NCBI GenBank assembly: GCA_944380765.1
Contig: CALWIO010000003.1
Coordinates: forward strand, 1,701 to 65,700
DNA length: 64,000 bases
Origin: an uncultured Clostridia bacterium
GTDB taxonomy: Bacteria; Bacillota; Clostridia; Oscillospirales; Acutalibacteraceae
Direction of reading: 5' to 3'
The translations under genes and the position numbers were made by a program. The notes under the pieces were generated by a model. That model was not told the DNA's origin and searched no databases. It worked only from the letters and a program-made list of their open reading frames with translations. Within the stretch, counting starts at the first letter, position 1, and each line of letters opens with the position of its first letter. Shown here one piece after another: positions 27,315-39,113 of the stretch.

Positions 27315-28325
27315 TTACGGCTGTTTGCTCTCGTTTTCAAGGCAGATTTTATACGCGATTTCTTCGAGCGTTCGCATATCGGCAACCGAGGTCAGCTCCT
27401 GACGGTATTTTGCCGCGCCGCGAAGTCCCTTTGTGTACCAGCCGGCGTGCTTTCTCGCCTCCCTGAGTCCCACATATTCGCCCTTGTACTCGCACAAAAG
27501 GCGTATATGGCTGAGCATTACCCTCATACGCTCGGTAACGGGCGGATCGGGAATAATTCTTCCGTGTTCAAGATAGGCGTTTAACTGTGAGAACACCCAC
27601 GGGCGCCCGAGCGCTCCCCTGCCCACCATAACAAGGTCGCAGTTTGTTTCTTCAAGCATTTTCGCCGCGGAAGCCTCGTCGCACACATCTCCGTTGCCTA
27701 TAACGGGAATTGAAAGCGCTTTTTTTACCTCGGCGATAATATTCCTGTTCACGGGCGGAGCGTACATCTGCGTTTTTGTTCTGCCGTGTACGGTAACAGC
27801 CGCCGCGCCTGCGCTTTCGGCTCTTTTCGCCATTTCTACGGCGTTGATATTATCAAAATCCCAGCCGCTCCTTATCTTTACGGTTACGGGCACCGGCGAC
27901 TCTTTGACAACCGCCGCCACAATTTCCTCGGCAAGTACGGGGTTCTTCATAAGCGAGGCTCCCGCTCCGTTTCCAGCTATTTTAGGTGCGGGACAGCCCA
28001 TATTTATATCGATTATATCCGGCGAAAACTCCATAACCTTTTCCACCGAGCGAGCCATAATTTCCGGGTCGCTGCCGAAAATCTGCACCGCCGCCGGTCT
28101 TTCTTTTTCCGAGAGAAAGGCCAGCTCAGCCGATTTTCTGTCGCCCATTGTTATGCCCTTTGAGCTTATCATCTCGCTGACGGCATAGGCGGCTCCGTAA
28201 CCGGCGCAGATTTCCCTGAACGCGCGGTCGGCAACGCCTGCCATAGGCGCCAGGGCGGCAAAGCCCTTTATTTCAACATTACCAATTTTCAAAGCATTTA
28301 CCTCGCAAAGCAAATTCCGCACCAT
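27315..28325 (-). CDS. dusB: tRNA-dihydrouridine synthase
   Basis: 336 aa with LAPMAGVADRAFR, DINMGCP and the HGRT motif. Confidence 0.9.
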   Translation of the reverse strand: MVRNLLCEVNALKIGNVEIKGFAALAPMAGVADRAFREICAGYGAAYAVSEMISSKGITMGDRKSAELAFLSEKERPAAVQIFGSDPEIMARSVEKVMEFSPDIIDINMGCPAPKIAGNGAGASLMKNPVLAEEIVAAVVKESPVPVTVKIRSGWDFDNINAVEMAKRAESAGAAAVTVHGRTKTQMYAPPVNRNIIAEVKKALSIPVIGNGDVCDEASAAKMLEETNCDLVMVGRGALGRPWVFSQLNAYLEHGRIIPDPPVTERMRVMLSHIRLLCEYKGEYVGLREARKHAGWYTKGLRGAAKYRQELTSVADMRTLEEIAYKICLENESKQP

Positions 28326-28457
28326 TTATTTTAACACACGCTCCGCAAAAAACAACCTGTTATTGCTTTTTTCGGCTTTTTAACGCTGTTTTTTTTTAAT
28401 ATTTATAAAAATCATTATAAAAAATGCACAAACTTTTTTTATATGTTGTTTTTTATA

Positions 28458-28519
28458 TATTCTGACAGCAGATTGTACAGCGAAAAAATAATTTTTGTAT
28501 TTGTGCATATTGCATAAAT
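28458..28519 (+). repeat. Upstream module A (TATTCTGACAGCA / TTGTACA / ATTTGTGCA-N3-TGCATAAAT); inverted partner at 39152..39221
   Basis: The three collinear blocks recur in the same order, reverse-complemented, at 39221-39152. Confidence 0.7.
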
Positions 28520-28627
28520 ACAAAGTAACACAATAGTAAGTTTTTACTAATTTGACTTTAATACAGACTTAAATTACTCTTTGTGCAATTTTACCAAATA
28601 TAGTATATTTTTATTGTGCAATAATGC

Positions 28628-28656
28628 TTGACAAATTAAAAAAACGGTGTTATTCT
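28628..28656 (+). promoter_or_regulatory. Strong promoter upstream of the 37-codon ORF
   Basis: TTGACA (28628-28633), 17-nt spacer, TATTCT (28651-28656). Confidence 0.55.
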
Positions 28657-28687
28657 ATAACCACAACAGAATAAAGGAGGCGACAAA

Positions 28688-28801
28688 ATGATGAACGCCG
28701 ATTATGAGCTTAGATTAAAGCTCGTGCAGGAGCTTATCAGCGAGAAGCTTTCGCTCAGAACTCTTGTCAAAGCGGTCGAGTTAATGGGCATCAGCCGTTA
28801 A
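28688..28801 (+). CDS. Small ORF, 37 aa (MMNADYELRLKLVQELISEKLSLRTLVKAVELMGISR)
   Basis: Not in the ORF track because it is under 60 aa. AAAGGAGG sits 7 nt before ATGATG. It has its own promoter and a strong downstream terminator; the peptide is predicted helical. Confidence 0.5.
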   Translation: MMNADYELRLKLVQELISEKLSLRTLVKAVELMGISR

Positions 28802-28826
28802 CAACGCCATCTTCCTTTAGTTTGTT

Positions 28827-28927
28827 TATAATTTCTGTGTGGTGGTTTTTCCAATCCCCAACAAATTTTCCCTTTCCTTTTTCATAAAGTATAACACCAA
28901 TCCCTATTTTTCCACCACACAGAAATT
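28827..28927. repeat. Long-range inverted repeat (16 bp perfect, 18/19 extended) with 66-nt spacer
   Basis: AATTTCTGTGTGGTGG (28830-28845) pairs with CCACCACACAGAAATT (28912-28927). The spacer carries two copies of CCAATCCC next to T5 runs. Confidence 0.85.
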
Positions 28928-28992
28928 TTAATATAAAGACTCTCACGAGTCGATACTTGGATATTTTACTATTTCCCCTTTATTATAATATA

Positions 28993-29038
28993 CAGAAACA
29001 CCGCCGGTCTCGAATGCACCCGGCGGTTTCTGTTTTTT
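28993..29038 (+). terminator. Rho-independent terminator of the small-ORF transcript
   Basis: CAGAAAC(A)CCGCCGG-N12-CCGGCGGTTTCTG followed by T6. Confidence 0.85.
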
Positions 29039-29351
29039 CTGCGACTTTCAAGCGGTGTAAGGCGGTAAAAGCGGGCAAAAGCCGCGCTTTATCCCGATAC
29101 CGTTTTTAACAATATTGTAATCGTCTTTCGTCCGCTTCTGCCCCCTGCGGCTGTTTGCCGCCCGGTTGTTGCAGGCGGATTTTTTGTTATCTGCAAACGC
29201 TTTTTCTGTTATGACGAGCTTATCTTGATATTCACAATACAAGCCTTTGGCCGATACAAACGCAGGCTGTAAACAAAACCGCGCGCCTGTAAATCCTGTA
29301 AATACTGCCCTATTGAGCGCCTGTAAATGCCGCAGCAAGCTTTTGGTTTCG

Positions 29352-29387
29352 GAAAAGCAAAAACCGCCGGACAAAAACCGGCGGTTT
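29352..29387 (-). terminator. Rho-independent terminator ending the eight-gene surface operon
   Basis: Minus strand ACCGCCGG-N7-CCGGCGGT followed by TTTTTGCTTTTCC, about 40 nt after the last stop codon. Confidence 0.85.
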
Positions 29388-29427
29388 AATCTTTTATTAT
29401 CGGTTGTTTTAACGCCTTTCGGCAGCT

Positions 29428-30333
29428 TTACGCCTCTTCTTCCTCATCCTTACGCTTTCTGCGGAAAAGAGGAATAAGGATAAACATAAACACGGTCACA
29501 ACCGCTATTCCGGTGGGAATCATTGGATTCTCACGCAGGAAGGCGCTGGTGTTGGGAATAATAGTATCAATGATACTTTCTTCCTCTTCCTGAGTTTCTT
29601 TTATTGTAACGCTCATATCGTCGTTAACAATAAAATCGACATTGATTTCCTTTGTGCCAACAGGAACGGTTATAAGCTGAGTTCCGTTCGGAAGCCGCTC
29701 AATTTTCATTTTTGAAACAGAGTTGCTTACAGCTATTGAAAAGCCGTCTCCGCCGATTACGGCGCCGTTATCATCGTATATAGTTACCTGATGATACCCG
29801 TCTTTAATTTCGCTTAAAGAATATTTACCGTTTTTAATCTCGGCGCTGTTGGAACCCAAGTCAAATTCCAGCCTGCCGCCGGGGAGCAGCTTATCGCCGC
29901 GGAAAACATTACCGCTCATTGCCATTCTCACGCATGGATCCTCGTGCGTAGGTTCTCCCTCGGGAGTGTCAGAGCCGTCGCAGCTTTCAAAATCGAAGAT
30001 AACCTCAATATCGGTATTGACATTTTCAAGAGTCAGCTGACCGTATAGCATATCATCGGTTTTATCCTCGCCGTTTACATAGACCTTTTTAAGGTGTGCA
30101 TCGCTGTCGGCTATAATATCAAGCCTGATATCCCCGAAACGGCCGATTTCAATTACCGAACCGCTGGGAACAAGCTCGCCGTCCATCAAAACGATACCGC
30201 CTTCGTTATAGACAACCGTGATTTCGTGTTCGCCGGGCACAACCGTTGAAAGCTGCGCTTCCTGAGCGAAAACGGAAAAAGATAGTAACATAACAAGCAG
30301 TAAGCTCATTACAATGCCGCTTGCCTTCTTCAC
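29428..30333 (-). CDS. Secreted beta-rich protein with C-terminal transmembrane anchor (operon gene 8)
   Basis: 301 aa with a GTG start after AGAAAGGGA. Signal peptide (..SFSVFAQE). C-terminus is IPTGIAVVTVFMFILIPLF-RRKRKDEEEEA, i.e. a hydrophobic helix plus basic tail with no LPXTG. Confidence 0.8.
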   Translation of the reverse strand: MKKASGIVMSLLLVMLLSFSVFAQEAQLSTVVPGEHEITVVYNEGGIVLMDGELVPSGSVIEIGRFGDIRLDIIADSDAHLKKVYVNGEDKTDDMLYGQLTLENVNTDIEVIFDFESCDGSDTPEGEPTHEDPCVRMAMSGNVFRGDKLLPGGRLEFDLGSNSAEIKNGKYSLSEIKDGYHQVTIYDDNGAVIGGDGFSIAVSNSVSKMKIERLPNGTQLITVPVGTKEINVDFIVNDDMSVTIKETQEEEESIIDTIIPNTSAFLRENPMIPTGIAVVTVFMFILIPLFRRKRKDEEEEA

Positions 30334-30365: not shown

Positions 30366-30860
30366 TTACGGAGTGGGTGCGTTATAAGTAACCGTATAGG
30401 TAAGAGTTCCTGTGTACTCAGCAATCGGAACGCCCGAGAAATCCGCTACCGTAACGGTAGTGTCAGATGTTACATTGTCTGTAACGGCAGGATAGGTCTG
30501 GCTGGTTGTTCCGCCGAGAGCAAAAGTAAGGAAATACTGGGGGTCAGCCTGAGCGTTTGTCATTTTGTTTTCATTGTTGCCGGTGACCTCTACTTTAAGA
30601 GTCGCGCCGAGCAGAAGCTGCGCGTCAACGGTGTAAGCCGCGTTCTGAGCCGAGGTGTCCTCCCAGTCAATAGCGATTTCGGCGGGAATTGTTACGCTGT
30701 ATTTATAAGCATCTTCACCACCGGTATTTGTCGTTTTGGTATAGACATTTACATCGGAATACTGGTTGATAGAATCCTTATCGATTGTCGCCGCGAAAGA
30801 TGTAACGCAGAGCGTAGCCATCATAGCGAGCGCCAAAACAACTGCAAGTATTTTTTTCAT
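30366..30860 (-). CDS. Secreted paralogue P1 of novel ~150-aa family
   Basis: 164 aa with signal peptide MKKILAVVLALAMMATLCVTSFA. Motifs YSVTIPAEIAIDW, LLLGATLKVEV and EYTGTLTYTV. Confidence 0.85.
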   Translation of the reverse strand: MKKILAVVLALAMMATLCVTSFAATIDKDSINQYSDVNVYTKTTNTGGEDAYKYSVTIPAEIAIDWEDTSAQNAAYTVDAQLLLGATLKVEVTGNNENKMTNAQADPQYFLTFALGGTTSQTYPAVTDNVTSDTTVTVADFSGVPIAEYTGTLTYTVTYNAPTP

Positions 30861-30887
30861 TGTAATTACTCCTTATATTTCCGCCCG

Positions 30888-31343
30888 TCAGACGATTTGA
30901 GCGGTGTAAGTGATTGTGTCGGTATATTCCGCAACGGGAGCCAGATCCCACGCTTCCTGCGCAACGGTTACCGTGATTGTGTTTGTTGTGCTTTCAGCCG
31001 CAGTAGCGGTATAGTCGGTAGTGCCACCGAGCATATAAGCAAGTGTAAGGGTGTCGTATGTCATCTCTTCGTCAGAAGCCGCGGTGATATTAAGGCTCTT
31101 GCCGGCTTCAAGGTGAGTTTCAACGGTATAAGAACTTTCAACCGCTGTGGTCTGATTCCACGGAACGGAAATTTCCGCGTCATAAATTACACTGTATGTT
31201 CCGCCTGCGGGAACTGTCGATGTATCTGTTTTAACAAGGCTGGAGCCGGTGTTCGCGGTTTCTGTAAGCTCATTGGCAAAAGCCGGAACGCACAGCGCAC
31301 AGAGCATTATGAGAGCCGTTAAAAGCGCAATAATTTTTTTCAT
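30888..31343 (-). CDS. Secreted paralogue P2
   Basis: 151 aa with signal peptide ..CVPAFA. Motifs YSVIYDAEISVPW, LEAGKSLNIT and WDLAPVAEYTDTITYTA. Confidence 0.85.
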   Translation of the reverse strand: MKKIIALLTALIMLCALCVPAFANELTETANTGSSLVKTDTSTVPAGGTYSVIYDAEISVPWNQTTAVESSYTVETHLEAGKSLNITAASDEEMTYDTLTLAYMLGGTTDYTATAAESTTNTITVTVAQEAWDLAPVAEYTDTITYTAQIV

Positions 31344-31360
31344 TTTTACTCCTCCTAAGT

Positions 31361-31846
31361 TTACGGTGTGGGCATTACTACTTCGGCTTCGAAGGTAAGA
31401 TTGTCGGTGTATTCCTCGATGGGAACATTTTCCCAGTCCGCCGCAGTTACATTGATCTGAATGGTTTTTGTCTCGTTTGCGAAAGCGGCAATCCCCACTA
31501 CATTTGTATCACCGGTTACGGTGTAGGGAAGCTGCTGAGTGCCGCCGGCGTTTTTCATTGCCGAGTTTACAGAAGCAACCGTTACGTTCAGCGTTGCACC
31601 GGGAATCAGCTGCGTTTCAACATCATAGGTCTCGGCTGTTTGTTCTTCGCCCCATTTTACATCAATTACGGCGGGATAGGTTACGGTGTAATAGCCGCCG
31701 CTTGCTTCAAGGTCGCTGTAATCGGTTATAACCGGCGTACTGCCGCTTGACGGAATACTTCCTTCGGTGATCTCGCCTGCGAATGCGGGAACGGTTACGG
31801 CAAAGAGCATCATAACCGCCAATAATACGGAAACTATTTTTTTCAT
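31361..31846 (-). CDS. Secreted paralogue P3
   Basis: ATG 31846 is 5 nt after AAGGAGTG. Signal peptide ..TVPAFA. Motifs YTVTYPAVIDVKW, LIPGATLNVTV and WENVPIEEYTDNLTFEA. Confidence 0.85.
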   Translation of the reverse strand: MKKIVSVLLAVMMLFAVTVPAFAGEITEGSIPSSGSTPVITDYSDLEASGGYYTVTYPAVIDVKWGEEQTAETYDVETQLIPGATLNVTVASVNSAMKNAGGTQQLPYTVTGDTNVVGIAAFANETKTIQINVTAADWENVPIEEYTDNLTFEAEVVMPTP

Positions 31847-31867
31847 GGTTTTCACTCCTTAGTAAAA

Positions 31868-32365
31868 TCAAACGATTTCAGCGGTGAAGGTAAGAGTGTC
31901 GGAATAAGTGCCGACAACCGCGGCGCCCCAATCCGCCTCTGCGATTGTTACGGTAAGATCCTGCTCTACCGCGGGAGTGTCAACTCCGCCGTAAACTACC
32001 GGTCCGCCGAGATATTCTGTTACACCGTCAAGGTTGTAAGCAAGCGTGTAAGTATCCTCAGCGCTGGCAACATAAGTCATAGCGCCGCTGCCCGCAACCG
32101 TAACTTTAAGCTGTTCGCCGTAACGCAGGTGAGCTTCTACCGCATAGCTAAGGTCAACCGGATCGGTTTCTCCCCACGGAATCTGTGTGTCGGCAGGGAT
32201 TGTTACATAGTAACTCGCGCCGTCATTTCCCGAAGCGTCCTGCTCCAGCGTCTGCACCAAAACCGTACCTGTGGCATTGTCCTTGTCAAGCTGCGCCGCA
32301 AATGCGGGAACGCAGAGAGTTAAGAGCATTGCCATAAACAAAACAACAGAAATAGTTTTTTTCAT
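31868..32365 (-). CDS. Secreted paralogue P4
   Basis: ATG 32365 is 6 nt after AAAGGAGTG. Signal peptide ..CVPAFA. Motifs YYVTIPADTQIPW, LRYGEQLKVTV and WGAAVVGTYSDTLTFTA. Confidence 0.85.
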   Translation of the reverse strand: MKKTISVVLFMAMLLTLCVPAFAAQLDKDNATGTVLVQTLEQDASGNDGASYYVTIPADTQIPWGETDPVDLSYAVEAHLRYGEQLKVTVAGSGAMTYVASAEDTYTLAYNLDGVTEYLGGPVVYGGVDTPAVEQDLTVTIAEADWGAAVVGTYSDTLTFTAEIV

Positions 32366-32386
32366 TTTAAGCACTCCTTTAAAAAA

Positions 32387-32839
32387 TTATATGTTTACGC
32401 ATTCTGCCTGAAATGTAAGCAAGTCCGTGTGCTCGCCAGCCGCGGCTTTTCCCCACTGCTCGTCAGTCACCGACACTGTCAGCTCAAAAGATTTGTTTAC
32501 CTCACCCGGCAGGAAGCTTATATCGTCTGCTCCGGAAAGAGTGTACTCAATTGTTTTCTGAGCGTCCATTGTGTTAACGAGCTTATAGTCGTTTTGCGAT
32601 GTTACGGAAACAGTCAGTACTTTTCCGGGCTCAATTTGCAGCTTTTCCGACTTGACCTCGCCTATGCCATAGGTTTCACTCTCCCATGGAATCTGTGTGT
32701 CAGCGGGAAAATACAGCGTCCAAACTTCATTGGTTGACGAGGTTGAAATAATCATTTGACTCTCGTCCGCCGCAAAAACGGGCAGAACCGTGAGAGTGAC
32801 AAGAACAACCGCCGCCAGAAGCGATAAAACTTTTTTCAT
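32387..32839 (-). CDS. Secreted paralogue P5 (most divergent)
   Basis: ATG 32839 is 7 nt after AGGAGGG. Signal peptide ..VLPVFA. Motifs LYFPADTQIPW, IEPGKVLTVSV and WGKAAAGEHTDLLTFQA. Confidence 0.85.
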   Translation of the reverse strand: MKKVLSLLAAVVLVTLTVLPVFAADESQMIISTSSTNEVWTLYFPADTQIPWESETYGIGEVKSEKLQIEPGKVLTVSVTSQNDYKLVNTMDAQKTIEYTLSGADDISFLPGEVNKSFELTVSVTDEQWGKAAAGEHTDLLTFQAECVNI

Positions 32840-32857: not shown

Positions 32858-35800
32858 TTATCCTTTTGTATAATTAACGGTATATGTAACAGCCGCGTCC
32901 TGCCTGTATTCGGCAACCGGCTTGTTAACCCACTGTGAAGCCTCTACCTGTATCTGCGCCGCGTCTGTACGGTTTACAGTCGCTTTGCCTGTATAAACTC
33001 CGGGAGCGCTTACCGAAGAGGTGCAGGATATTACCTCGCTTGTGCCCGTATTGGTCAGATCAAAGGCGCTTTGCTTGAACGCCACGCTGACCTGTACTTC
33101 GGAGCCTGCGTTAAGATTACAGTTAATCTGATATCCGAGATTTGTTGACTCAGATCCCCACGGTATTCCGATTTCCGCCGGAATTGTCACCACATAGGAA
33201 TCGTCGGAAGCGTAGGTCACGCTGACCGTTTTAAGATCCTCGTATTTACGGTTGATGCCGTTTGAGTCAACATACTCATAAGTAAGTTTTATATATACCT
33301 CATCGCTGAGCGCAGCCGTAACGGAAGCGGGAGAATCAACGCTGAAACGAAGCGTCAGGCTGTATGAGCCTGAATCAGCCGGGCCGACACTGCCGTATGG
33401 CGTTTCGGTACTGTTCAAAACGAACGGTGTGCCGTTCACGGTCATGGTGTAGCTGAGCGGCGACTGCGAACCGTCCGCCGCGACAAGCTGACCGCCGTTC
33501 TTTGACCACACGGAAATCTGTGCCGTACCGCTTAAATCGCTTAAATAGCGCTCAAAATCAACGAGTGTATAAACCATATCGTTTTCGGTCTGCGGATTTT
33601 CGTCTGAAAGAATAACGCTGCTGTTCGGCACCATTCCGCTGTCCGTACTTGTTTCAAGCGTAGTCTTTGCGTACGGGAACAAATCGCGTATCTGCTGAAT
33701 CATATCGTACAGCTCGGCAACATTGTAGAAAGTGGGTATCAAGGCGTCATATTCTTCAATAGTCGCCCTAAGCTCTTCCCTTTCGGCGTCGGTAAGAGGA
33801 GTTCCTGACGCGAGCTTGTTCCTTGTTACGGTCAGCAGGTTGTTGTACTTATCATAAAGCGACAAAAGTCCCGCTCTTGTGGTAGTGCCGTTTATATTGT
33901 ATGTTGTCGAGTTGAGCAGCAGCTTTCTTATAGCTGTCGGTATATTTTTATAGTCGGAGTGAGCCTCACCCGAAGCCATAAGATATTTGGCAAAATAATC
34001 CATGCTGCTGCGATAATTATCATTTAGCTGCGAAAGCGAATCACGGTAACCCGTTCCGAGCGATATAAAGTATCCTTCGCGGCCGTCATAAGGTTTTGTT
34101 TTGTCATAAACCGTTGCCGGCTGTCCGGAAGAACCTAATTCCGTTCCCGCTGTTCCTGCCGCCTTGTCGGGATACCTCAAAGGAAGCTGTCTGTAAATCG
34201 AATCAGCCGAATTAACATCGGTAAGTTCATTTAACATTTCCGTTGTATCCGAAAGAGCTTTTTCAAGCGTTTCGTTACACCTCATCGCCGCGTTATAAGC
34301 ATTGATAAACTGTGTGCACAGCTCGTCGCCTATCAGTTGTTTCTGAGCTGTTGTGTACCTTGAATAGTCAAGATTGTAATACTCTATAATCTGCTCCGCC
34401 TGCTCTTTGGTAATTCCGTAAGCTGCATAGTTTACAGCGTCCGCCATTCCGTCGGAATCGTTATCAACATACCCGGGATAAGGCAAATCCTGCTCGCCGG
34501 ATACCGAAGCGTTCTTAACCGCATTGGGAAGTGAATTCACCCACGCAACGAAAGCCTCCGGCTCATCACGGTACATATACTCGCTTTGCGGAATTTCTCC
34601 TGAAATTACTTTTTCGTAATATATAAGCCTTTCATTGGCATTTATTACCGACTGAACCTGAGTCCTCTGATATTCCGTAAGGGTATTATACTGTACCCTC
34701 GCCGCAAATACATCGTCTGCAAAGAGACCGTCGTTAATCTCAATTGCAGCGACAGCATCCTCAAACTGCTGAGCCGGAAGGCTCTTCGCCTGACAAACCT
34801 CGTCGAAGTCCGTGTCGTTTCTGCCGGTTACTCCGGGATATACATCGGGCTGATAGGCAAAGCCGATGGTGTCAATCATATAAGAAGCGCCTGTCATAGC
34901 GACCGCCGCCGCGTTGGAATTGGGTGCTACACCTATTTGAACCTTACAAATTCCGTTGAGCGCCGTTACGCTTTCGTCCATGCCCACGCCCTCATTTATC
35001 AAGCCGGACCTCTCACCCTTGAAATGATACAGCGGAAGCATAACCCAGCCCTTATAGTGGTCGAGGCTTAATCCCTCGGCGCCGTCTGACGAATTGTAGC
35101 CGTATATACGGTTGCTGTAACAGCAGACCCATTCGCCGGTATCCGGATTCAAAAGCCAGTATTTTCTGTCTCCGGAATCCGTACCCATATCCAGAGTATA
35201 GTCGGTAAGATTTCCGTCAGAGTCTTTCGTTGTAATGGTCGCCGTAAGACGGAAATCGGAGAGCTGGCTGAAGTCTGCATAGAACGCAAGCGCCAGCGGA
35301 AGAATCTTGGTTTCGTCATAGCTTCCGGGATTATACTGGTTCGCAAACTGACCGAGATTGAACTGCCCCATATTGTTATTAAGAAGACTGTCGGTCGTTC
35401 CGTCCTGTCCCTGATAGGTGACGGAAAGAACATTGTAAAAGCCCTCGTTTTCACTGTATCCCTGCCCGTTGAGCTGTATCACGGCAGCGTTTGTGCCGTT
35501 AAATCCGCCGGCTTCTATTGTCGCAAGCATTTGGTTAACATAAAGGGGATCGGTGTCCGCGGTGTGATCGGCTCCGGACGATCTTCGAAAACCGTCCACA
35601 ATCGGATATGACCATGAATATGAGCCTAAGGAACCGGTAGCATCACTGTCAGCACCCGTAAATCCGCGGAAACGCTTTGTAGTATATGTCAGGAAGCCCT
35701 TTGTGTAACGGTAGTCCTGCCCGTAAACGCCTGAGCCTAAGTTCGGATAGTTTTCAAGCTGCCAGGCCATTGAGCCCTGCGTCTGGTTCGCGGCGTCAAA

Positions 35801-38143
35801 GTCATTGAACACTATAAATTTGTTGTTTGCCAAGGACTGACCTACAACATCCATTTCTGAATCGGAAGAACCGCTGCTCATAAGAGCGAAATAGCTGCGA
35901 AGCTCCTGTTCCTCGGCGGTGCTCAGTGCGTCAAGCTGAGTAAGATTAAGTCTTCTGTAAAGCTGATAGAGCTTTTGTATCTCATCATTAAGCTGATCGC
36001 TGACGCTTGTTACATTTGACGGGTCAGGAAGCTTTTCCATGCTTCTTATAAGCTCCGGCACCAAATCGTATGCCGTTATATTTGTGGGATATGCCGCCGA
36101 CGCCGTGGGATTGTCCGGGTCATTCGGCGTTATTGTACCCGCCGCCCAGCACTCTTTGCGCGCGGTTATAAAATTGTTCCAGCTTTCCCGTCCCTGGGAA
36201 GCCGCCAATGCCGCCAGAGAATCCTCGCTTAAAAAGTCGGTGGAAACACCCGCCTGTGAAAAGGCTGTGCGGTATCCCTCTATAAGCTCTTCAATATACC
36301 GTACCGCGCCGAAGTCGGCAAGGTCCGGGCTTGAAAGATAATGATCTATTTCAGAAAGTATGCTGTTCGCAATTTCCTCTTTCTGCTCGTAATATTTTGA
36401 AGCCGGGTCGCCGGTGTTCTTCTCATTGCCGTCCAGCGTGTTTTCCGGGTAGGCCTGCCCGTCGGTTCTGTAAAACAGAACATTATCCATAAAGAAACTC
36501 TTATTTACGCTTTCATCGCTCGTATCCTTATAAGAAAATCCCGCAGAATAAAGGTCATTTATAGCTTTAAGTCCGTTCTCACGGTTTAGTACCGTTCCGT
36601 TTTGAATATACGCCCTGTCCGCCGTGCTGTTTGTGTCGGCCTCGTCCATTTTGTAACCCGCCGCGAGCATTGCAGCGCCCCAGGTCGGGTATTCCATATA
36701 GGCGTAATCTCCGCTTGCGTAATCATAGGGATAGTGCCACTTGGCCTCACTTGCACCGCCTGGATTATAATCAGTACTCTTATCAACCGCGAACTGACGG
36801 TACTGAATAAGCATGGCGTCGGAAACCGAGGTGCCCGCCTCGTCAACAAGCACCGGCTGGCTGTAAAGAATATTATTTTCAAACCATGCTTTTACCTCGG
36901 CGCCGTCGTTTTCACGATTCAGCACGCACACGGTGTCAACCATGTTGAAGTTCAAATTGGTAGCTTCGGCGTAGGTATTCTTTGTGGAGCACATAAACTC
37001 AAGCGGCACGCGGATATAACCCTTGTAATGAGAAAGGTCTATAGTGCCGTTGTTAAGCATTACCTTCTGCCAGCCGCCGTTTTCCTGCTGAATAAAAACA
37101 TATGGCGCTTCGCCCTTATAGCCGGAAGCGGTTGTGCCGAGCGTAGAGTAGGTGACGGGGCTGTACTGGTCTGTTCCGCCGCTGTCAAACTTTACTACGC
37201 CGTCGTCAAGCGAGGTGTCTCTGCCGTTTGTGTGTCCGCCGAAGGCTCTTTTATTTCGATAGTAGAACTCGCCTAAAAGCTTTGCGTTGGTTTTAAGGTC
37301 AAAGGAAAGACCGGTTACCGAAACCTGAGAAAGGTCCATCCAGAACCATACTTCTTCGGCACCTTCAAAGTCATAGGTCTGACGGCTGTACGGCGTCGTA
37401 AAAGCTTGTGTCACCCCGCCCGTTCTGTTATTTATATAGAATCTGAGCGCAGATGAACTCAAACCTGTTGACGGGTCGATAACGCCGTCGCGTGTGCCTA
37501 TGCCGTACAACGCAAGACTGCTGCCTGTAAGCTGTCCCGTAGGAGTACCGCCGCTCTCAAAAATCATCATCTCGCGCATTGCCTTTTCATTCTCGGTCAG
37601 AGGCGCGTACGCGTCGGCATCATATTCAAATCTCGGAGTATCTGTAACTGCGCAGTCAATCGGTTCGGAAACCCAGCCTGTGCTGTCAACTGCTGTTATG
37701 CGGATATTGTAACGGTTGTTATCTGAAAGAGTCACTGACTTTGCCGAAAGCTCCGCAGCTGTAATATTAAGCGAATAATAAGTGCTTGAAGCATCTGTTA
37801 CGGTCACCGTTTTTTCGTATTCCAGCACTCTCTGATGCAATGAGAGCGTAGATCCGAGATTATACAGCGACAAAAGATAATAGCTTATCGTTTTCGGCTC
37901 TTTTCCCGGATACTCACGGGCAGTCGCGGCTGAAAACATTACATGCACACCGCCGTCGTCAAGAAGATAGGCCGCAGCTGAAGCGTCGCTCGTGAAAACC
38001 GGCGTCGGGTCGTATGTACCGGGTCCCGCCGCGAGAGCAATCGGAAGCGAACCGACTATCATAATCGCCGACAGCAGCACCGCCATCAGCTTTTTGTTCA
38101 CTTTATTTGTTTTACCAAAAGCTGAAAATATTTGTTTTTTCAA
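32858..38143 (-). CDS. Giant secreted multidomain protein (~1,760 aa) ending in a paralogue-type domain
   Basis: Likely TTG start at 38143 (AAAGGAGAG plus 8 nt); the ORF is open to 38173. Has a signal/anchor helix. The C-terminal ~140 aa carry YVVTIPAEIGIPW, LNAGSEVQVSV and WVNKPVAEY...VTYTV. Confidence 0.85.
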   Translation of the reverse strand: MKKQIFSAFGKTNKVNKKLMAVLLSAIMIVGSLPIALAAGPGTYDPTPVFTSDASAAAYLLDDGGVHVMFSAATAREYPGKEPKTISYYLLSLYNLGSTLSLHQRVLEYEKTVTVTDASSTYYSLNITAAELSAKSVTLSDNNRYNIRITAVDSTGWVSEPIDCAVTDTPRFEYDADAYAPLTENEKAMREMMIFESGGTPTGQLTGSSLALYGIGTRDGVIDPSTGLSSSALRFYINNRTGGVTQAFTTPYSRQTYDFEGAEEVWFWMDLSQVSVTGLSFDLKTNAKLLGEFYYRNKRAFGGHTNGRDTSLDDGVVKFDSGGTDQYSPVTYSTLGTTASGYKGEAPYVFIQQENGGWQKVMLNNGTIDLSHYKGYIRVPLEFMCSTKNTYAEATNLNFNMVDTVCVLNRENDGAEVKAWFENNILYSQPVLVDEAGTSVSDAMLIQYRQFAVDKSTDYNPGGASEAKWHYPYDYASGDYAYMEYPTWGAAMLAAGYKMDEADTNSTADRAYIQNGTVLNRENGLKAINDLYSAGFSYKDTSDESVNKSFFMDNVLFYRTDGQAYPENTLDGNEKNTGDPASKYYEQKEEIANSILSEIDHYLSSPDLADFGAVRYIEELIEGYRTAFSQAGVSTDFLSEDSLAALAASQGRESWNNFITARKECWAAGTITPNDPDNPTASAAYPTNITAYDLVPELIRSMEKLPDPSNVTSVSDQLNDEIQKLYQLYRRLNLTQLDALSTAEEQELRSYFALMSSGSSDSEMDVVGQSLANNKFIVFNDFDAANQTQGSMAWQLENYPNLGSGVYGQDYRYTKGFLTYTTKRFRGFTGADSDATGSLGSYSWSYPIVDGFRRSSGADHTADTDPLYVNQMLATIEAGGFNGTNAAVIQLNGQGYSENEGFYNVLSVTYQGQDGTTDSLLNNNMGQFNLGQFANQYNPGSYDETKILPLALAFYADFSQLSDFRLTATITTKDSDGNLTDYTLDMGTDSGDRKYWLLNPDTGEWVCCYSNRIYGYNSSDGAEGLSLDHYKGWVMLPLYHFKGERSGLINEGVGMDESVTALNGICKVQIGVAPNSNAAAVAMTGASYMIDTIGFAYQPDVYPGVTGRNDTDFDEVCQAKSLPAQQFEDAVAAIEINDGLFADDVFAARVQYNTLTEYQRTQVQSVINANERLIYYEKVISGEIPQSEYMYRDEPEAFVAWVNSLPNAVKNASVSGEQDLPYPGYVDNDSDGMADAVNYAAYGITKEQAEQIIEYYNLDYSRYTTAQKQLIGDELCTQFINAYNAAMRCNETLEKALSDTTEMLNELTDVNSADSIYRQLPLRYPDKAAGTAGTELGSSGQPATVYDKTKPYDGREGYFISLGTGYRDSLSQLNDNYRSSMDYFAKYLMASGEAHSDYKNIPTAIRKLLLNSTTYNINGTTTRAGLLSLYDKYNNLLTVTRNKLASGTPLTDAEREELRATIEEYDALIPTFYNVAELYDMIQQIRDLFPYAKTTLETSTDSGMVPNSSVILSDENPQTENDMVYTLVDFERYLSDLSGTAQISVWSKNGGQLVAADGSQSPLSYTMTVNGTPFVLNSTETPYGSVGPADSGSYSLTLRFSVDSPASVTAALSDEVYIKLTYEYVDSNGINRKYEDLKTVSVTYASDDSYVVTIPAEIGIPWGSESTNLGYQINCNLNAGSEVQVSVAFKQSAFDLTNTGTSEVISCTSSVSAPGVYTGKATVNRTDAAQIQVEASQWVNKPVAEYRQDAAVTYTVNYTKG

Positions 38144-38169: not shown

Positions 38170-38973
38170 TCAAGACGCAACTATAACCGTCTTAATGTCC
38201 ATATTGTTAAGCGGGCGCTGTTCCTTGTCAAAGCTGAAGCAGAGGAAATGAACAGTAACATCATATTCTCCCGCGTCCAGCGCCCTGTTGAGTTCAAATT
38301 TTGAGATGTGGTATCCGGGCGGAATAAGGTCGGATTTATAAAGAATTTCGCCCGTGTCGCGCATTTCTATTTCTATCTGGAAATAGCAGGGGTTTTCTTC
38401 CGGATTCGCAAAAACATAGTTCTGCGAAGTCTGACCGGCTTTAAGCTGCATCTGTGCTATTCCGTTTATTTTAATCTGTTTGCCCTTGGTTTCGGTTTTT
38501 TCGGGGACGGATACCTCACCCTCGCCTAGCTCCGCACCTGTATCTATTACACCGCTGCCCGTATTGTCAGCGGGGGGAGTATCGGAACTGTCGGGCCAGA
38601 AAAGTACTACCGCCGCCGCAATCGCCGCGATTACAAGAAGACCCGCAATTACCGCGAGAATGATGGCCGCGAGAATATCCCTGACAACGGCTATAAACTC
38701 ATGCTCGCCCACCTGAACATATCCGCTGACCGAGGTGTGAGGCATTTTCCGGGTTTTATAAACCTTTTCGTCAACGCCGCCGAAGCTGAGAACGCCCGTT
38801 TCGGTACGGCCGGCGCCTATCTGGCCGACGACATAGTAACCGCCTGCGGGAAAAGCCTTTTTCATATCGGCGCTCTTTATGTAGGAAACCCTGAAACCGC
38901 TTTTTTTATTAACATATGTTTTGTTTGCCGTTATTTCACCGGCATATACGGTAAACTGAACTGAATCTGCCAA
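38170..38973 (-). CDS. Single-pass membrane protein (operon gene 1): N-terminal cytoplasmic beta domain, TM, extracellular beta-sandwich-like domain
   Basis: 267 aa with a TTG start 7 nt after GGAGG. Central TM ILAAIILAVIAGLLVIAAIAAAVVLFW. The stop overlaps the open frame of the giant gene. Confidence 0.75.
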   Translation of the reverse strand: MADSVQFTVYAGEITANKTYVNKKSGFRVSYIKSADMKKAFPAGGYYVVGQIGAGRTETGVLSFGGVDEKVYKTRKMPHTSVSGYVQVGEHEFIAVVRDILAAIILAVIAGLLVIAAIAAAVVLFWPDSSDTPPADNTGSGVIDTGAELGEGEVSVPEKTETKGKQIKINGIAQMQLKAGQTSQNYVFANPEENPCYFQIEIEMRDTGEILYKSDLIPPGYHISKFELNRALDAGEYDVTVHFLCFSFDKEQRPLNNMDIKTVIVAS

Positions 38974-39085: not shown

Positions 39086-39113
39086 ATTATACTAAATTTT
39101 GACTTGTTGTCAA
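39086..39113 (-). promoter_or_regulatory. Near-consensus promoter of the surface operon
   Basis: Minus strand TTGACA (39113-39108), 16-nt spacer, TATAAT (39091-39086); about 105-nt leader to the TTG start. Confidence 0.6.

Follow-up and report, generated by a model that had tools for sequence, protein, structure and literature searches.

The chaperone-usher systems of Gram-negative bacteria need a periplasmic chaperone and an usher for the assembly of their pili. In monoderm bacteria and archaea, donor-strand polymerisation proceeds without a chaperone in the TasA superfamily, which includes TasA, AbpA and CanX (10.1101/2024.12.30.630787). A third organisation is found in WxL/Csc gene clusters, which encode small WxL proteins, one large WxL protein and the WxLIP protein, the latter built as DUF916-DUF3324-transmembrane helix (PMC9772566, PMC10599100). 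In the small WxL domains the N-terminal strand is held by a linker that is long and irregular (PMC9772566, PMC10599100), and AlphaFold predicts completion of the WxL sandwich by a strand from WxLIP (PMC10599100). Here we compare with these systems an operon of eight genes in a 64,000-nucleotide stretch of contig CALWIO010000003.1 from an uncultured Clostridia bacterium of the Acutalibacteraceae (the window, to which all coordinates refer unless a locus is named). At its centre stand five tandem paralogues for small secreted proteins, which share a domain with the giant secreted protein encoded before them and have a predicted fold most like that of chaperone-usher pilins.

The five small genes are consecutive open reading frames (ORFs) of 151–168 amino acids on the minus strand, between positions 30366 and 32845. 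Each starts with an in-frame ATG-AAA-AAA (MKK) that is preceded by an AGGAGG or AAGGAG Shine-Dalgarno sequence at a distance of 7–10 nucleotides, and all five products carry Sec/signal peptidase I signal peptides. The resulting gene coordinates (30366-32839) match those given in a first-pass annotation of the DNA, which had described five consecutive genes with MKK starts and signal peptides ending in (A/V)FA. The ending is correct for p5 (PVFA) and for p4, p3 and p2 (PAFA), but the signal peptide of p1 ends in TSFA, and the motif is therefore (A/V/S)FA. The small proteins have an isoelectric point (pI) of about 4.05 and a Thr content of 11–22%; Cys is absent from p1–p4 and occurs once in p5. 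A lipobox is present in none of the five, and we rejected the idea that they are lipoproteins.

The small genes belong to an operon of eight genes, in the order up267, giant, p5, p4, p3, p2, p1 and dn301 (Table 1). A sigma-70 promoter-like site that matches the consensus at all 12 positions lies in front of the first gene, the intergenic gaps within the operon measure 12–32 nucleotides, the Shine-Dalgarno sites are strong, and a terminator-like hairpin follows the last gene; the eight genes thus constitute one transcription unit. Inside the operon we found no attenuator that would single out a 'major' subunit.

Table 1. Window coordinates of the operon genes, of the C-terminal domain of the giant protein and of the flanking transcription signals.
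Feature	Coordinates	Strand	Remarks
Promoter-like site	39086-39113	-	TTGACA-16 nt-TATAAT, 12/12 consensus matches, sigma-70 type; 5' of up267
up267, first gene, 267 amino acids	38170-38973	-	No signal peptide; one transmembrane helix
Giant secreted protein, 1,761 amino acids	32858-38143	-	TTG start at 38143; Shine-Dalgarno AAAGGAGAG; MKKQIF signal peptide
Pilin-like C-terminal domain of the giant	32861-33250	-	About 130 amino acids; sixth family copy
p5, type 1	32387-32839	-	ATG at 32839; short N-terminal strand MIISTS; C-terminal strand GEHTD.LTF; directly after the giant in 12/12 loci
p4, type 2	31868-32365	-	ATG at 32365; modelled with AlphaFold, pLDDT 91.6; type present in 1–3 copies in other cassettes
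p3, type 3	31361-31846	-	ATG at 31846
p2, type 4	30888-31343	-	ATG at 31343
p1, last type	30366-30860	-	ATG at 30860; C-terminal end YTGTLTYTVTYNAPTP; type adjoins the anchor gene
dn301, putative anchor/stalk protein, 301 amino acids	29428-30333	-	Last gene of the operon
Intrinsic-terminator-like hairpin	29361-29387	-	10-bp stem, 7 GC pairs, T-run; 41 nt past the dn301 stop codon

The five small genes are true, old paralogues. Every pair of mature proteins can be aligned by BLASTP, with identities of 23–44% and E-values from 4e-4 to 7e-23, and the Smith-Waterman scores of the mature pairs lie 7–26 standard deviations above those of shuffled sequences (300 shuffles per pair), far beyond what composition-matched random sequences would give. 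To define the conserved columns we used 140 family representatives with pairwise identities below 50%. All three collinear blocks noted in the first-pass annotation reappear in this set as conserved columns: Y52, V54, P57, A58, I62 and W64 in the N-terminal block, L80, G83, L86, V88 and V90 in the central block, and W146, Y154, D156, T157, L158, T159, F160 and T161 in the C-terminal block. In front of them lies an N-terminal strand, x-[VI]-K-T-x, whose conservation is about that of the core residues (V/I in 98% and T in 90% of the representatives) and which is joined to the core by a linker of 5–25 residues. The signal peptide, for its part, is better conserved in the same representatives than most of the mature protein, with M1, K2, K3, F22 and A23 each present in at least 90%. 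The giant and the dn301 protein likewise begin with MKK and have cleavage sites after xFA or xLA, and signal peptides of this common form could point to a step of export or processing dedicated to these proteins.

The family extends well beyond the window. A word-indexed search returned 198 relatives of the small proteins, and an exhaustive search by profile yielded 2,610 representatives at E ≤ 1e-3, 738 of them at E ≤ 1e-10. The genes recur in a conserved cassette of about 10 kb, present in many gut metagenome assemblies, which consists of a transmembrane protein of about 266 amino acids, a giant of 1,635–1,893 amino acids with the C-terminal domain, three to seven small genes and an anchor protein of 301–365 amino acids. 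We observed this cassette in 12 loci, with flanking genes that differ among contigs. A scan of one genome per species with the up267 alignment gave matches in eight species, which belong to Candidatus Fimenecus and other Clostridia.

Within the cassette the small genes follow a fixed order. Clustering of the 58 small proteins from the 12 loci separated positional types, of which type 1 is the first after the giant in every locus, type 2 occupies the middle in one to three copies, and the last type, recognised by the ending '…YTGTxTYTVTYxAPTP', lies beside the anchor gene in each of the seven cassettes that have it. Furthermore, the window paralogues are 49–67% identical to the genes at the same position in locus L001 and 23–41% identical to their own neighbours. 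The duplications are thus old, the copies non-redundant and their order constrained, in agreement with the old duplication and non-redundant subunits that the first-pass annotation had envisaged. Its other suggestion, antigenic variants, does not fit types that are conserved across species and show no diversification within a locus. The order of types and the variable copy number in the middle fit a linear structure with specialised ends. In locus L012 (10341-18959) an otherwise complete cassette lacks the last-type small gene, and the C-terminal domain of the giant in that locus stands exceptionally near this type, with 42% identity to p1 of the window. A separate peculiarity concerns type-2 subunits at L003:10482-11545, L010:10773-11847 and L012:15763-16849, in which the linker before the core contains dockerin/EF-hand-like calcium-loop motifs such as DTNGDGVGDTD and DSNGNGQIDPDDDD; p4 of the window keeps a remnant, DASGNDG.

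The longest ORF of the giant gene opens at 38173, and the start was assigned to the TTG given in Table 1. About 1,600 amino acids of the protein have no match in Pfam or the Protein Data Bank (PDB). A single module, 'G.W.kv…L..YKGYIrVPL.F', is duplicated internally at residues ~354-395 and ~1000-1052 in the numbering of the longest ORF (hhalign, 92.9%), and the two copies may mark two jelly-roll or carbohydrate-binding-module-like domains. The C-terminus, in contrast to this matchless remainder, is homologous to the small proteins (hmmsearch, 2e-25; hhalign, 99.5%) and closest to their last-position type; when further pilin-like domains were sought within the giant, the C-terminal one alone was significant. 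In the hhalign comparison the domain aligns with the family core only, from position 24, and the N-terminal strand is not matched. The same domain also occurs outside any cassette, in stand-alone proteins of 293–473 amino acids (P0270 at L013:10001-11422, P0177, P0221 and P0198) that combine an N-terminal LRR_5 (BspA-like) region of leucine-rich repeats (LRR) with a C-terminal pilin-like domain. The domain seems to be a plug-in attachment module that serves other cargo as well, LRR proteins among them.

To compare folds, we built an AlphaFold2 model of mature p4 on an alignment of 89 sequences; an earlier model on a six-sequence alignment had a mean predicted local distance difference test score (pLDDT) of 57 and was not used. 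The model (mean pLDDT 91.6, predicted template modelling score 0.77) is all-beta with one short helix. The best Foldseek matches in the PDB are chaperone-usher proteins, namely CfaB, CS17, the CsuE pilin domain, Caf1, SafA, the pilin domains of PapG, FimH and FimI, FimA, PapA and EcpA. The CfaB trimer was matched with an E-value of 1.3e-3, a probability of 1.00 and a template modelling score (TM-score) of 0.54, and the CsuE pilin domain with a root mean square deviation (RMSD) of 4.5–4.6 Å across 129–138 columns. Strand-swapped CfaB polymers were matched with an RMSD of about 13 Å despite TM-scores above 0.5, a value that would be expected if the position of the N-terminal segment alone differs. 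Generic immunoglobulin (Ig)-like or fn3 domains and cohesins scored worse or were absent, and CanA ranked 45th with a probability of 0.41; neither TasA nor AbpA was among the top 50 matches, and a Foldseek search of viral structures returned weak, uncharacterised matches only. A cohesin-dockerin system, with a Foldseek probability of about 0.1, was rejected. According to the model, then, the fold of the small proteins is most like that of chaperone-usher pilins, which lifts a resemblance that the first-pass annotation had drawn from sequence patterns to the level of the fold.

The subunit genes are flanked by genes for two membrane proteins. In up267, an N-terminal beta-rich domain of about 100 amino acids, which we take to be cytoplasmic, is followed by the transmembrane helix, an invariant segment GVID..A.LGEGE.SVPEK and an ectodomain of about 110 amino acids. 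Orthologues of up267 are 48–62% identical, and searches of Pfam, NCBIfam and the PDB returned no match for it. Its topology leads us to propose that up267 might be a membrane-tethered assembly factor. Residues ~135-185, which contain the invariant segment, align with the N-terminal and first core strands of the small family at an hhalign value of only 24%, which we did not use; in the same alignment the transmembrane helix of up267 lies opposite the small-family signal peptide. This hints, without proving it, that up267 may be a membrane-tethered relative of the subunits.

The dn301 protein is the putative anchor or stalk. Its signal peptide (MKK…VFA) is followed by a mature N-terminus of the form xxLxTVVP..HEITV and an N-terminal domain, then by an acidic linker, rich in Pro/Thr, flanked by Cys and variable in length, and a CarboxypepD_reg-like domain (PF13715 was matched in one homologue), and finally by a conserved I-x-x-T-(G/S)-A-x-LRENP, a transmembrane helix, RRKRK and an acidic tail. 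The signal peptide and the [IL]-K/S-T-V-V-P strand align with those of the subunits (hhalign, 90%, most of it driven by the signal peptide). Among orthologues in the window (29428-30333) and at L001:11571-12626, L002:11571-12647 and L005:18732-19829, the main difference is the number of TDPDEPT copies between two invariant Cys residues, so that the length of the stalk varies between strains. Judging by this topology, dn301 would be the base or anchor of the structure. Its C-terminus, I-(I/P/S)-x-T-(G/S) followed by a hydrophobic helix and RRKRK, superficially resembles a sorting signal, as it would in a sortase-assembled Gram-positive pilus whose covalently joined subunits are linked to the wall through an LPXTG-like signal of the last product. 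We consider such a pilus very improbable. Most dn301 orthologues lack the Pro at the second position of the motif, and the basic stop-transfer residues are succeeded by an acidic tail; neither a C-terminal sorting signal nor a transmembrane segment is present in the small subunits, which stop right after their last beta strand, or in the giant; the subunits have no Cna-B or SpaA pilin matches; and the TLxTC signature of sortases is found in no ORF of the window or of any related locus.

Combining these findings, we tentatively favour, at somewhat less than an even chance, the reading that the operon builds, on the surface of a monoderm gut Clostridium akin to Candidatus Fimenecus, a chaperone-usher-independent fibre or stalk by beta-strand complementation, with the giant as the tip, the anchor protein as the base and the five small genes supplying shaft and adaptor subunits. 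All products except up267 would be exported by Sec and cleaved after xFA. Each small protein would then present an acidic, Thr-rich Ig-like domain behind the conserved x-[VI]-K-T-x strand and its linker of variable length, and the components would be joined non-covalently, the strand of the next one completing or extending the sheet of the previous one. The order of the chain would be that of the genes: the giant, as distal tip or adhesin, followed by type 1, one to three copies of type 2, types 3 and 4 and the last type. At the cell, dn301 would hold the chain by plugging the last subunit with its free N-terminal L-K/S-T-V-V-P strand, while the wall would be crossed by its Pro/Thr-rich linker together with the CarboxypepD_reg-like domain, and its C-terminal helix would be embedded in the membrane. 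The up267 protein, finally, would hold or prime the subunits at the membrane, in place of a periplasmic chaperone and usher. In covariation analysis (mutual information with average product correction), the N-terminal strand pairs best with the first core strand (V54, I56) and with segment 150-155 before the last strand, a weak signal that is confounded by phylogeny and the same for pairing in cis or in trans. In chaperone-usher pilins the donor strand lies at the first core strand/just before the last strand.

Several points weigh against this reading. The strand exchange is proposed by analogy with the fold, for which the Foldseek E-values are modest (about 1e-3) and the TM-scores about 0.5, and the suggested roles of the first and last genes are drawn from their topology. 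Moreover, stand-alone proteins of 460–473 amino acids, in which an LRR_5 domain precedes the pilin-like one, retain the N-terminal strand internally, and the linker behind this strand has just 5–6 residues in type 1 subunits and giants, a length that would allow a hairpin in cis. Instead of being donated freely, the strand may thus belong to its own domain as an integral cis element. The lack of an attenuator favouring any one subunit, lastly, fits a long polymer no better than a complex of fixed stoichiometry.

A complex of this kind, with wall-seated domains clamped by the anchor protein in the role of WxLIP and forming a non-polymeric platform that displays the giant and LRR cargo, is a serious alternative, if in our judgement a rather doubtful one. 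It draws its weight from the gene layout, which follows the logic of WxL/Csc clusters: several small proteins that consist of the domain only, a single large one that ends in this domain, and a protein with a signal peptide, Ig-like domains and a C-terminal transmembrane helix. The N-terminal strand on a linker is likewise shared with WxL domains, for which completion by the strand of a partner is predicted, and the stand-alone LRR_5 proteins with their pilin-like domain would be its cargo. At the level of sequence, however, the relationship is not borne out, as neither the operon components nor 89 family members match PF13731, DUF916 or DUF3324, and W-x-L is not conserved, the position two residues after W64 and W146 being variable and not Leu. 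The resemblance to the second WxL motif remarked upon in the first-pass annotation is thus not upheld in sequence; the layout of the operon does mirror that of WxL clusters. Furthermore, a pI of about 4.05 does not favour attachment to an anionic wall, pilins that form fibres are the nearest among the solved folds, and a chain accounts better than a platform for the conserved linear succession of types in which the middle one is duplicated.

The remaining alternative is that the small proteins work singly, as independent binding proteins, secreted or on the surface: soluble Ig-like lectins or adhesins that share no more than a transcript with a large adhesin. Their signal peptides are indeed ordinary, no anchor is recognisable on them, and the monomer model is confident and compact. 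Nevertheless, considering (i) the positional types, whose order is the same from species to species, (ii) the pilin-like domain that they have in common with the C-terminus of the giant, and (iii) their invariable co-occurrence with the two membrane proteins, which together argue for physical co-assembly, we regard this explanation as improbable.

The eight operon proteins belong to no curated family. Scans of all eight against Pfam, NCBIfam, PHROGs and PADLOC gave signal-peptide noise only, 89 family members scanned singly against Pfam at E ≤ 10 pointed to no consistent family, and no PDB sequence was matched by the giant alone or by the profiles built for up267, the giant and the small family. 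The few named homologues in databases are 'hypothetical protein' entries from metagenome-assembled genomes of Candidatus Fimenecus and 'Ruminococcus sp.', and full-text literature searches for donor-strand pili in Firmicutes, Bacillota or monoderms, and for the small-protein family itself, turned up no account of the family. Subunits of the endospore appendages Ena/F-ENA are DUF3992 or head-neck proteins that lack Sec signal peptides and are assembled on spores (F-ENA: PMC11844507). An assignment to this group was rejected because all subunits here have Sec signal peptides and match no corresponding Pfam family. The genes around the operon are of the housekeeping kind, including a GH35 beta-galactosidase, a TRAM/U5 RNA methyltransferase and a dihydrouridine synthase; given these flanks and zero PHROGs or PADLOC matches, a prophage or defence island was rejected as well. 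Between the terminator and the dihydrouridine synthase gene, about 1 kb (28326-29360) has no convincing ORF and no Rfam match, and the 2-kb bin 28001-30000 has a GC content of 0.42, compared to about 0.49 elsewhere. The sole RNA gene detected in the window is a tRNA-Thr (GGT) at 721-796.

With some 2,600 family representatives, a recurring cassette of about 10 kb and eight proteins outside curated families, the operon has the appearance of a surface apparatus that is common in uncultured gut Clostridia (Candidatus Fimenecus and relatives) yet unstudied. It is conceivable, although we would call it unlikely in this full form, that it represents a previously unrecognised class of Gram-positive pilus, in which subunits of pilin fold would be joined by donor-strand exchange in gene order without chaperone, usher or sortase, between an adhesin tip of about 1,760 amino acids and a strand-donating base, with a single-pass assembly factor and a domain that also serves as a plug-in for LRR cargo. 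Should the subunits assemble in the way that their fold implies, a monoderm without the machinery considered necessary would turn out to use the chaperone-usher pilin fold and perhaps donor-strand exchange as well; Gram-negative fimbriae, TasA-type filaments and WxL clusters would become linked; and the 1,761-amino-acid tip protein would offer a handle on attachment to host, mucus or dietary particles.

Set beside the known systems, the operon shares with chaperone-usher pili, above all those of class 5 and of the archaic type (CfaB/CfaE of CFA/I, CS17, CsuA/B-CsuE), subunits of about 130–150 amino acids with an N-terminal strand ahead of an Ig-like core, a C-terminal strand in which Thr and hydrophobic residues alternate and a Gly lies 14 residues from the end, and an operon of several ordered, non-redundant subunits; the giant, with its large N-terminal region and C-terminal pilin-like domain, is laid out like FimH, CfaE and CsuE. 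It differs from them in that there is no sequence similarity (no fimbrial Pfam or NCBIfam match at E ≤ 1 for the five proteins, and no fimbrial Pfam match at E ≤ 10 for the 89 members) and in its host, a monoderm Clostridium without periplasm or outer membrane. Neither the operon's eight proteins nor its flanking genes match PapD-like chaperone or usher families, and the related cassettes are likewise without them; the tip protein has about 1,760 amino acids, compared to about 300, and two membrane proteins without known family flank the subunit genes. From the WxL/Csc clusters of Lactobacillales and Listeria it is set apart by an extra first gene with a mid-chain transmembrane helix, by strongly acidic subunits and by its taxon, Clostridia. 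The TasA superfamily provides the precedent for the mechanism, with Sec-exported monoderm subunits that polymerise by donor strands without chaperone or usher, and the calcium-loop-like inserts by the N-terminal strand of some type-2 orthologues recall the calcium-primed strand invasion of the archaeal CanX cannulae. No Peptidase_M73 (PF12389) match and no gene for a SipW-type signal peptidase occur in the cassette, however, and where TasA, AbpA/AbpX, CanX and the 0406 thread are built from one or two subunits, the present operon and its relatives would employ five to seven together with a giant.

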